From positions 103,314 to 167,313 of the forward strand of contig JBBSVO010000006.1 in assembly GCA_038046805.1 (NCBI GenBank): 64,000 nt of DNA, given 5' to 3'. Of the stretch, positions 3,773-61,580 are shown in pieces (within the stretch, counting starts at the first letter, position 1; each line of letters starts with the position of its first letter). The notes under the pieces were generated by a model, which did no database searches, was not told the DNA's origin, and saw only the letters and a list, made by a program, of their open reading frames with translations. Source of the DNA: Candidatus Micrarchaeota archaeon (lineage in GTDB: Archaea; Micrarchaeota; Micrarchaeia; Anstonellales; Bilamarchaeaceae). Position numbers and translations under genes: made by a program.

Positions 3773-4867
3773 ATGTTTGATGATATTCTTTCAGCAGCTA
3801 AAGGAAGTTCGGCAGATTCCAGCTCAAAGATTGAGCCAGTGAATGAAGAAGATGGGCATGTGCGTATTGCAGTAATCGGAGTTGGCGGAGCAGGATGCAA
3901 CTGTGTTGATAGGCTTACAAAACTTGGCATCAAAAGTGCGACAACAATTGGTCTGAATACTGATGCAAAGCACATAAACATGATTCAGGCACACAAGAAA
4001 ATCCTTATTGGAAAAACAATTACAAGAGGGCTTGGTGCAGGTGGGTATGCAGATGTCGCAAGAAAGGCAGCAGAAGCAGATCGTGAAATGCTCAAAAGAG
4101 AGATTGGAGAAAATGAACTTGTTTTCATCGTAGCAGGTATGGGTGGCGGAACCGGTGGAGGTGCTGCCCCTGTTGTTGCGGAAATAGCAAAGGAGCAGGG
4201 TGCAATAGTCGTTTCAATAGTAACCTATCCATTTGCCCTTGAGCGTGTTCGTATCAAAAACGCACAAATACAGATAAAAAATCTTGTTCAGAAATCTGAC
4301 ACCGTGGTTGTTATAGATAACAACAGGCTTGCAACCTATGTGCCAAACCTTCCAATTGACAAGGCATTTGAGCTTGCAGATTCAATCACATCTCGAGCAG
4401 TAATTGGAATTGCAGACACAATAATGTTCCCAAGCCTCATGAATGTTGATTTTGCTGATGTAAGGGCTGTAATGCAAGGTGGTGGACTTGCAATGATCTC
4501 TCTCGGAGAAGGAAGTGGGATGGATCGTGTTCAAAATGTAGTGAAAGACACTCTTGAACATCCGCTTCTTGATGTAAATTATGAAGGCGCAAAAGGCTGT
4601 ATGTTGCATATCGAAGGTGGTCCAGACCTTACGCTTGGAGATGTCATAAAAACAGGGGAAATCCTCACACAGAGTTTTGATCCAACCTCTGGGATAAAGG
4701 TTGGTGCAAGGGTTAATCCAAACATGGGGGAAACAATCCGCGTGACTGCAATAATAACTGGCGTGCGCTCCCCGTATATCTTCAAAAAGGATGATGAAGG
4801 TGCAGGTCTTGATCTGGCCGCAACCGCTTCTAGTGGCGGTGGGGATTCAGCGCTCCAATACCTCTAG
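3773..4867 (+). CDS. ftsZ: Cell division GTPase FtsZ
   Basis: 364 aa. GVGGAGCNCVDRL and tubulin signature GMGGGTGGGAAPVVAEIAKE, NVDFADV motif, acidic/Gly-rich C-terminal tail. Confidence 0.95.
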   Translation: MFDDILSAAKGSSADSSSKIEPVNEEDGHVRIAVIGVGGAGCNCVDRLTKLGIKSATTIGLNTDAKHINMIQAHKKILIGKTITRGLGAGGYADVARKAAEADREMLKREIGENELVFIVAGMGGGTGGGAAPVVAEIAKEQGAIVVSIVTYPFALERVRIKNAQIQIKNLVQKSDTVVVIDNNRLATYVPNLPIDKAFELADSITSRAVIGIADTIMFPSLMNVDFADVRAVMQGGGLAMISLGEGSGMDRVQNVVKDTLEHPLLDVNYEGAKGCMLHIEGGPDLTLGDVIKTGEILTQSFDPTSGIKVGARVNPNMGETIRVTAIITGVRSPYIFKKDDEGAGLDLAATASSGGGDSALQYL

Positions 4868-25879: not shown

Positions 25880-25961
25880 CCTCACGATACAAAACCCGAG
25901 ACCGAGTGAACGTCCGACAGAACGAAGCGTCGTTCCATAGGACACTAGACAAAAAATAAAA

Positions 25962-26109
25962 TAGCGGGGGATGGATTGACAGCTTCACTGGAAATTTTTG
26001 GTTGCCAGACCAAAGCTTTTGAACCATCGACCTCCGGGTTATGAGCCCGGCGGGAACTATGGTTAGTGCGACCTAAATCGCAAAAATCTCCAAGCTCCCC
26101 CACCCCGCT
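25962..26109 (-). tRNA. Initiator tRNA-Met (CAT) with two non-canonical introns (D-loop and T-loop)
   Basis: Minus strand reads AGCGGGG-TG-GGGG-AGCTTGG...TCCC-G-CCGGG-CTCATAA-CCCGG-AGGTC-GATGG-TTCAA[42 nt]AT-CCATC-CCCCGCT-A. The AGCGGGG acceptor and CCGGG/CCCGG anticodon stem fit the archaeal initiator. Anticodon at 26041-26043. T-loop insert 25977-26018, D-loop insert about 26057-26088. Mature length about 75 nt. Confidence 0.75.
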
Positions 26110-26138
26110 AACGTAAAATGTTATTTGTCCACGAGCAT

Positions 26139-26666
26139 TTAAAAATACGTGAGCGCAAGCGTTCCAAGATATGCGAGCAAAACATATCTCGCAGTTCTTC
26201 CAATCACACAAGCCAGCAAAAACCTTTTCCAATCGATTCCGATACTCCCAGCAGCTATTCCTGCAACATCAAACGCGGGATTAGGAATTGCGGACAAAAC
26301 AAAAATCGCAAAAAAATCATTTTTCCTGATCCATTCCTTCCATTTTTTGAATCGTCCGTCCAATTCTTTCTTTACAATGTTAGATGCCCCGGCGCCAACA
26401 GAATATCCGGTTATTTCTCCAAGTCCAGAACCAATGCCTGCAACAACTCCGACGATATATGGGTTAAGCACTCCTCCAATTGCGATTACTGCCGCCCAAC
26501 CCGGCGCAGGAATAAAAATAAGCGCGGAACTTAATAAAGAAATTACGAATACTCCGGCGTATCCCAGTTCTTTGAGTTTTTCTATATCTGCACTAATATA
26601 CCAAATTGCTGCAATTACAATCAGTGCAAACAGCACCTGAAGTGCTCCTTTCGTTCGCTCATCCAT
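26139..26666 (-). CDS. DedA/YqaA (VTT-domain) membrane protein
   Basis: Start reassigned to the ATG at 26666 (MDERTK...), because the upstream part of the track ORF overlaps tRNA-Ala. Motifs IFIPAPGW, GSGLGEITGY, PNPAFDVAGIAAG. Confidence 0.75.
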   Translation of the reverse strand: MDERTKGALQVLFALIVIAAIWYISADIEKLKELGYAGVFVISLLSSALIFIPAPGWAAVIAIGGVLNPYIVGVVAGIGSGLGEITGYSVGAGASNIVKKELDGRFKKWKEWIRKNDFFAIFVLSAIPNPAFDVAGIAAGSIGIDWKRFLLACVIGRTARYVLLAYLGTLALTYF

Positions 26667-61264: not shown

Positions 61265-61388
61265 TGCAGGGATAGCAAAGCCTGGTCAAATGCGCAGGAC
61301 TTAAGGAGCCTTTTGACTTCTAAGTAGGTCTGTGGTTTCGGAAATCCTGTCGCTTAGTGCGTTCGCAAGTTCAAATCTTGCTCCCTGC
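61265..61388 (+). tRNA. tRNA-Leu (TAA) with canonical 37/38 intron (38 nt)
   Basis: GCAGGGA-TA-GCA...TGC-G-CAGGA-CTTAAG[61305-61342]A-TCCTG, variable arm, then GCAAG-TTCAAAT-CTTGC-TCCCTGC-A. Anticodon at 61301-61303. Mature length 86 nt. Confidence 0.85.
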
Positions 61389-61580
61389 ATTTTGTTTTCA
61401 TCTGAGTTCTTCGGGTTTTTCGTGAGGAAATACCTCATGAACTACCTTCCGTCAGTGAAGGTTCTGACGTAAGATCTATTTAAGCCCTGGCCTGAGGCGA
61501 GTTAGACGATTGCCTAATTAATAGTAGTCCAACGAGTCATGGTGCTTATTTTTAAATCCTTTGAACACTAATATACTTCA

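Follow-up and report, generated by a model that had tools for sequence, protein, structure and literature searches.

The minus strand of the window, the whole 64,000-nucleotide stretch of DNA analyzed here (C6:103314-167313), carries an initiator tRNA-Met(CAU) gene at 26109..25962. The gene is 148 nt long, as a first, sequence-only reading of this DNA had proposed, and consists of three exons of 22, 39, and 14 nt interrupted by two introns. The host is a groundwater Micrarchaeota, a DPANN archaeon, whose assembly (G000) comprises 1.2 Mb in 16 contigs with a completeness of 86% and a G+C content of 43%. The PolD small subunit encoded next to the locus shares 93% identity with its counterpart in "Candidatus Micrarchaeota archaeon UBA10214" and 51-59% with those of other Micrarchaeota MAGs. 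UBA10214 (G202; loci L001, L040, and L071) belongs to the same genus and serves here as the sister species; the completeness of its assembly is 84%.

All features of the locus lie on the minus strand. Exon 1 (AGCGGGGTGGGGGAGCTTGGAG, 22 nt, 26088..26109) contains the 5' acceptor strand AGCGGGG, U8 and G9, the 5' D-stem strand GGGG, and the D-loop AGCTTGGAG up to G20a; it matches uninterrupted orthologues without gaps and is identical in UBA10214. Intron 1 (ATTTTTGCGATTTAGGTCGCACTAACCATAG, 31 nt, 26057..26087) interrupts the D-loop at Sprinzl position 20a/21, as placed by the orthologue alignment and by UBA10214. Exon 2 (TTCCCGCCGGGCTCATAACCCGGAGGTCGATGGTTCAAA, 39 nt, 26018..26056) opens with U21, the 3' D-stem strand UCCC, G26, and the anticodon arm CCGGG-CUCAUAA-CCCGG, whose 5-bp stem and 7-nt loop present the anticodon CAT at 26043..26041. 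It continues through the variable loop AGGUC and the 5' T-stem strand GAUGG into the T-loop UUCAAA, ending at A59. Intron 2 (AGCTTTGGTCTGGCAACCAAAAATTTCCAGTGAAGCTGTCAA, 42 nt, 25976..26017) lies in the T-loop at position 59/60, as placed by its bulge-helix-bulge (BHB) register and by UBA10214. Exon 3 (TCCATCCCCCGCTA, 14 nt, 25962..25975) supplies U60, the 3' T-stem strand CCAUC, the 3' acceptor strand CCCCGCU, and the discriminator A73; the terminal CCA is not encoded. Exons 2 and 3 were delimited by ARAGORN on the spliced sequence, BLAST, alignment, and the sequence itself. Splicing is predicted to join GCUUGGAG to UUCCCG at the boundary of exons 1 and 2, and GGUUCAAA to UCCAUC at that of exons 2 and 3.

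Two flanking elements may direct transcription, judging from their sequences. A TATA-like, A/T-rich box, TATTTTTAAAT (26137..26147), located 28-38 nt ahead of the mature 5' end, is a putative archaeal promoter; TATTTTTAAAT is not conserved upstream of the UBA10214 orthologue. A T-run, TTTTATTTTTT (25951..25961), follows directly 3' of the discriminator base and is a putative archaeal terminator.

Mature sequence and intron boundaries

We searched 201 Micrarchaeota genomes with the provisional spliced sequence, and at least about 120 of them gave a contiguous full-length match of 75 nt. The uninterrupted initiator genes read out from these matches were all 75 nt long and shared an invariant GGAGU in the D-loop and an invariant UUCAAAU in the T-loop. 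The spliced exons of the window were then aligned with the uninterrupted initiator genes of 21 other Micrarchaeota (n = 22). The joined exons gave a 75-nt sequence that aligned without gaps, and the exact mature sequence was thereby established through uninterrupted orthologues. Compared with the orthologue L008 from the same family, 71 of the 75 positions were identical, and all four differences formed two compensatory stem pairs: C:G to U:A at 30:44 and A:U to G:C at 52:66 (75-nt numbering; 28:42 and 50:64 in Sprinzl numbering). The spliced sequence formed all 21 of the 21 cloverleaf pairs. Across the alignment, cloverleaf partners were paired in 99.8% of cells, versus 38-57% when the 3' partners were slid, and double changes at 8 pairs amounted to covariation.

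Archaeal initiator tRNAs are identified by a terminal A1:U72 pair together with three G:C pairs in a row at 29-31:39-41. Both A1:U72 and G29-31:C39-41 were present in the window gene and invariant in 22/22 aligned sequences; all initiator identity elements are therefore intact. ARAGORN called a tRNA-Met(CAT) only after in-silico removal of both introns; with either intron retained it returned no call or a spurious tRNA-Leu. A covariance model, R1, built from the 22-sequence alignment matched the interrupted locus across model positions 1-75 with 75.5 bits (E = 1.8e-16 in the genome), a score that is partly circular because the window's own spliced sequence is 1 of the 22 training rows; the alignment to independent orthologues is not circular. 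The next-best match in the genome was a tRNA-Ser at 27.7 bits. The match of the locus to the initiator model is far beyond chance.

These results bear out most of what had been read from the letters alone. The acceptor AGCGGGG/CCCCGCT, the anticodon arm CCGGG-CTCATAA-CCCGG, and the variable loop AGGTC are all found on the minus strand within 26109..25962, as are the TGCGA/TCGCA hairpin and the AGCTT/AAGCT and TTGGT/ACCAA helices. The identification of an archaeal initiator tRNA-Met gene interrupted once in the D-loop and once in the T-loop is supported by the orthologue alignment, the covariance model, and in-silico splicing, after which the D-arm and T-arm assignments hold (21/21 pairs, 75.5 bits). 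The T-loop insert, 26017..25976, is 42 nt as claimed. The D-loop insert, put at about 30 nt between GCTTGGA and TCCC, is real, but its size needed correction. The gap measures 33 nt and holds a 31-nt intron, because its first G and last T are G20a and U21; the triplet A20-G20a-U21 is invariant in the 22 aligned initiator tRNAs.

The window alone left some play in the boundaries, as each junction can shift by one or two nucleotides without altering the product. Nor did a blind, strict-register BHB scan of the 148 nt settle them: spurious GC-rich pairs from tRNA stems outranked the true sites. The splice sites were fixed from uninterrupted orthologues because a single sequence could not fix them. 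UBA10214 added a second anchor. Its exons are 100% identical to those of the window, and its introns occupy the same two sites. In that species GGAGTT is restored only by a 20a/21 junction.

Intron 1 of UBA10214 is also 31 nt long and differs by 4 substitutions; one converts the U·U mismatch in the central helix H of the window into U:A, and the others fall at unpaired positions (hairpin loop, 2x2 internal loop, and 3' bulge). Intron 2 is 32 nt long and cannot be aligned in sequence with its counterpart in the window. Its helix h' is nevertheless kept in register by compensatory changes, AGCUU:AAGCU in the window becoming AACUC:GAGUU. Between the two species, introns and flanks have diverged and exons have not. 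The changes within the introns are, as far as sequence comparison indicates, evidence that the introns are maintained rather than decaying.

Copy number of the initiator gene

Only at this locus of the genome did BLAST with the mature sequence find the three exons in collinear order. Searches of the assembly and of UBA10214 for the exact initiator anticodon-arm core, and for variants of it, in a tRNA context, with no more than 2 mismatches, returned no second locus, and neither did a search of both for the initiator acceptor pair within 400 nt. Likewise, R1 detected no second initiator gene in the assembly or in UBA10214. The second R1 match in UBA10214, at 46.8 bits, turned out to be tRNA-Phe(GAA), which has a canonical intron, and was set aside as not an initiator. 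The possibility that this is the only initiator gene therefore stands to the extent that no intron-free second copy was detected in this assembly or in UBA10214, both about 85% complete. At that completeness a second, unassembled copy is conceivable. The 100% conservation of the exons argues that the copy in the window is the functional one.

The same conservation bears on whether the locus could be a decaying pseudogene, with a working initiator gene in the unassembled ~14% of the genome. The 86% completeness leaves room for such a gene, and the weak central helix of intron 2, with 2 of 4 pairs, would suit decay. Against this, exon identity is 100% between two species that have diverged in introns and flanks, no other initiator gene was found in either of the two independent assemblies, changes within the intron helices are either compensatory or confined to unpaired sites, and the initiator identity elements are all intact. 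We consider a pseudogene highly improbable.

Splice motifs and processing enzymes

In the canonical BHB register, the 5' exon ends two nucleotides into a 3-nt bulge that follows a 4-nt strand of the central helix (H), and the intron ends two nucleotides into a second bulge, so that the two sites lie 4 bp apart. Both introns follow this register. For intron 1, H pairs UUGG (17-19) of the D-loop with CCAU of the intron, with 3/4 pairs in the window and 4/4 in UBA10214. The 5' bulge is AGA, cut after AG, and h' consists of 2 bp (UU:AA), followed by a 2x2 internal loop and the 5-bp hairpin UGCGA:UCGCA; the 3' splice site falls within a 3x3 internal loop, with no clean bulge. For intron 2, h is the 5-bp T-stem and H pairs the T-loop UUCA with UGUC of the intron, with 2/4 pairs in the window and 3/4 in UBA10214. 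The 5' bulge is AAA, cut after AA, h' is GCUUU(G):(U)GAAGC (6 bp), and the 3' bulge is AAU, cut after AA.

Shuffled introns reached the register values with p of about 0.05 for intron 1 and 0.001 for intron 2 in the window, and of 0.012 and 0.0001, respectively, in UBA10214. In the minimum free energy (MFE) fold (z = -3.2), the acceptor, anticodon, and T stems are retained, as are the 3-nt bulge at the 5' site of intron 1 and helix h' of intron 2; the 3' site of intron 1 is base-paired there in a shifted D-stem register. Neither intron forms the strict hBHBh' motif (3-4-3: a 4-bp H, two 3-nt bulges, and two outer helices), which at 59/60 is found in relatives such as G066, L041, L042, and L043. 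Both form the relaxed motif (HBh'/hBH), with each 5' bulge between H and h' and the 3' cuts in register. By this sequence-based classification, both motifs are relaxed and HBh'-like rather than strict. Another 15 initiator genes with a 59/60 intron and another 9 with a 20a/21 intron show the same register, and in most of them the central helix, UUCA:UGAA or NNGG:CCNN, is perfect.

Could the gene be real and one or both junctions lie elsewhere? In the window, junctions of intron 2 at 57/58, 58/59, and 59/60 yield identical mature RNA, and a perfect TGAA complement to the T-loop UUCA occurs inside the intron, offering an alternative UUCA:UGAA helix 9 nt ahead of the 3' junction. We rejected the internal TGAA as the central helix; its use would leave extra T-loop nucleotides and destroy the cloverleaf. 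As to the neighboring junctions, only 59/60 keeps the invariant UUCAAAU in UBA10214, and it was chosen for that reason. In addition, 15/15 other T-loop introns examined place the 3' cut immediately before U60, two nucleotides past the 4-nt stretch that is paired with the T-loop. Junctions other than 20a/21 and 59/60 are thus very unlikely.

Genes for the enzymes that would act on these sites were found in the assembly. Contig C8 (locus L038 1207-2388, minus strand) encodes an EndA of 393 aa that matches Pfam PF01974 and PF02778 and aligns from end to end with the epsilon2 endonuclease of ARMAN-2 (PDB 4FZ2/9W2K); residues 3-393 align to 4-387 of 4FZ2 chain A (395 aa) with E = 1.2e-137. ARMAN-2 EndA has the catalytic triad Y236/H251/K282 and an ARMAN-specific loop (ASL) whose Y160/K161 give it broad specificity (PMC3488258, PMC12397907), and it cuts strict and relaxed motifs in vitro, including the 59/60 intron of pre-tRNA-Cys (PMC3239211). 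Residues Y237, H252, K283, Y161, and K162 of the C8 protein align with Y236, H251, K282, Y160, and K161 of ARMAN-2, and the equivalents of K228, R275, and W384 are also conserved. By alignment, then, the C8 protein is a full-length epsilon2 splicing endonuclease, the predicted orthologue of the ARMAN-2 enzyme. An RtcB ligase is encoded on contig C9 (550.8 bits). Separately, a 177-aa ORF on contig C2 (locus L039 1456-1989, minus strand) matches PF01974 weakly, at 25.5 bits versus a cut-off of 27 bits; alongside the epsilon2 enzyme, this ORF may represent an EndA-like subunit that is degenerate or has a structural role.

We propose the following route. The locus would be transcribed into a precursor of about 150 nt or more, in which homodimeric epsilon2 EndA would recognize two relaxed BHB motifs, one formed by U17-G19 of the D-loop with the 3' part of intron 1 and the other by T-loop residues with the 3' part of intron 2. 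Cuts would fall after G20a, after nucleotide 31 of intron 1, after A59, and after nucleotide 42 of intron 2, and RtcB would ligate the three exons. With ends processed by RNase P, RNase Z, and the CCA-adding enzyme, the product would be an initiator tRNA of 75 nt plus CCA, bearing A1:U72 and the three G:C pairs at 29-31:39-41, presumably used in initiation. Cleavage depends on the assumed broad specificity of EndA, because H of intron 2 has 2/4 pairs and the 3' site of intron 1 is unclean and is paired in the MFE fold.

Retention of the inserts as expansion segments, or their removal by self-splicing or another route that bypasses EndA and RtcB, might be entertained. At 31 and 42 nt, however, both are far below the size of group I or II introns; if retained, they would hide G18-G19 and the T-loop, the parts of the tRNA that make up its elbow. 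The register of the BHB motifs is moreover conserved, and the cognate enzymes are encoded. Retention or another route is therefore hardly credible. In our assessment, the locus is very probably a single-copy initiator tRNA-Met(CAU) gene whose two introns are spliced via relaxed BHB motifs by epsilon2 EndA and RtcB.

Interrupted tRNA genes in this and other archaea

Standard tools overlooked the gene. Default ARAGORN reported no tRNA in the whole window. Rfam at the gathering threshold missed the gene, the only tRNA that it reported in the window being another one at 61266-61389, and at E <= 10 it found nothing tRNA-like in the 281-nt region, where the only match was a chance one to a cyanobacterial sRNA at 15.9 bits. 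Since standard finders miss it, automated annotation would mark an essential initiator gene as missing and understate the completeness of the genome. The problem extends to other tRNAs: 4 pass the Rfam cut-off in the 1.2 Mb, and ARAGORN -i, which allows introns, finds 14. A scan for acceptor plus T-arm gave tRNA genes with lengths of 93-290 nt, the majority of them carrying D-loop introns. In this genome almost all tRNA genes are interrupted, and more than one intron per gene is the rule; an automated annotation of the MAG would badly under-report its tRNAs.

A recurrent intron family of ~70-80 nt, with the pattern ..CC(C)TTTTGAC..TGAAACC..GGNCAAAAGCG..TTCA..CGAAAAG.., occupies the D-loops of at least 7 different tRNA genes and the anticodon region of others. 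Its sites include C3:97879, C3:116338, C6:32910(-), C6:233187(-), C7:18919(-), C8:6722(-), and C3:95308(-), and a short form lies in the window at 61266-61389. Its recurrence suggests transposed or mobile BHB introns, or an intron-borne structured RNA. Membership of the initiator introns in a mobile family was considered and rejected: both are single-copy in the genome, and both fall outside the recurrent CCTTTTGAC D-loop family. Elsewhere in the assembly, at C9:12340-12470 (-), a tRNA-Lys(UUU)-like gene (GGGCTCGTAGCTCAG…CTTTTAA…) has its T-loop interrupted after GGTCCAAA, an apparent 59/60 intron.

Among the Micrarchaeota sampled, the initiator gene is a mosaic. It is uninterrupted in most genomes; a 59/60 intron occurs alone in G066, G017, G091, G004, G038, and G126, a 20a/21 intron alone in G006 and G132, and other initiator introns lie near 8/9, near 31/32, or at 37/38. 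The form with both 20a/21 and 59/60 introns is confined to the genus described here. In a genome of the same family (L052, G087:C1), the initiator gene has two introns in other positions, near 8/9 and near 31/32; initiator intron positions therefore turn over within one family. Another member of the family (L051, G017:C5) has a 136-nt initiator intron at 59/60 with short A/C-rich repeats (…AAAACGAGAAACAGAA…GACAAACAAGACAGCTAACAAAACAGC…).

Outside the Micrarchaeota, the 20a/21 and 59/60 pair is also found in an Aenigmatarchaeota genome (L041, JAFCFQ010000040.1, ~4550-4669, plus strand) and in five Methanomassiliicoccales/Thermoplasmatota MAGs (L044-L048). Most of these genes have strict BHB motifs, with TAGG:CCTA or CAGG:ACTG in the D-loop and UUCA:UGAA in the T-loop. 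The initiator genes of a Njordarchaeum (Asgard) MAG and of a "Thermococci" MAG have a 59/60 intron only. Two entries, "Thermococci archaeon B88_G9" (L043, QMUK01000084.1) and "Thermoproteales archaeon" (L049, CAZFTG010000035.1), share a near-identical initiator locus, including ~90-nt flanks on each side; given their differing taxonomic labels, at least one of the two bins is probably mislabeled.

In these three distant phyla, the introns pair with G18-G19 and U54-A57, which are residues of the tRNA elbow. The likeliest explanation of the recurrence is independent hits, the conserved G18-G19 and U54-A57 making it easy for a BHB to form there. Alternatively, the two introns could form an ancient combination, or one coupled in function, by which the only initiator tRNA is kept from folding until both cuts have taken place. 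We regard this as unlikely; if true, such a combination could serve as a checkpoint on maturation or shield the gene from integrating elements.

The sequence-only reading had implied that translation initiation would depend on two noncanonical splicing events. The significance of the gene is lower than this implies, because nearly all tRNA genes of the genome are interrupted, the lineage has a broad-specificity endonuclease, and essential BHB-dependent initiators are already known (PMC3218864). The annotation is useful and leaves the current understanding of archaeal tRNA splicing unchanged. Its value lies in a comparatively anchored, putative example of an essential single-copy tRNA relying on two relaxed-BHB cleavages by an epsilon2 endonuclease, and the natural variants in the sister species could serve as substrates for studies of endonuclease specificity.

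Several known systems share parts of this arrangement. Multiple noncanonical tRNA introns and the epsilon2 enzyme have been described in ARMAN-2 (Candidatus Micrarchaeum acidiphilum), a member of the same phylum (PMC3239211). Its pre-tRNA-Cys has an intron at the same 59/60 site, and its endonuclease has an orthologue encoded here. In contrast to that case, the present one concerns an initiator tRNA in another genus, of a groundwater lineage, with a second intron at 20a/21, and its enzyme and substrate are predicted from their genes. In Thermoproteales, tRNA genes have up to three introns (PMC4033280, PMC4090602). As here, several BHB introns in the D-, anticodon-, and T-arms of one gene are missed by standard finders and occur together with a broad-specificity endonuclease, but these organisms are crenarchaeal and use an (alpha-beta)2 enzyme. 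Nanoarchaeum equitans, also a DPANN archaeon, likewise assembles its sole initiator tRNA by splicing endonuclease and ligase. There, however, a split tRNA-iMet is joined at 37/38 (table in PMC3218864), that is, two halves are trans-spliced at the canonical site, whereas cis-splicing of two introns is predicted here. In Thermofilum pendens, the single-copy tRNA-iMet(CAU) gene is permuted, with its junction at 59/60, and has a canonical intron at 37/38; its processing was concluded to be essential (Chan, Cozen and Lowe 2011, PMC3218864). Both cases thus present a single-copy initiator tRNA that needs two BHB-type events, one of them at 59/60. The T. pendens gene, from another phylum, is permuted, its second event is canonical, and its endonuclease is of the (alpha-beta)2 type, whereas the gene described here is collinear, both of its introns are noncanonical, and the predicted enzyme is epsilon2.
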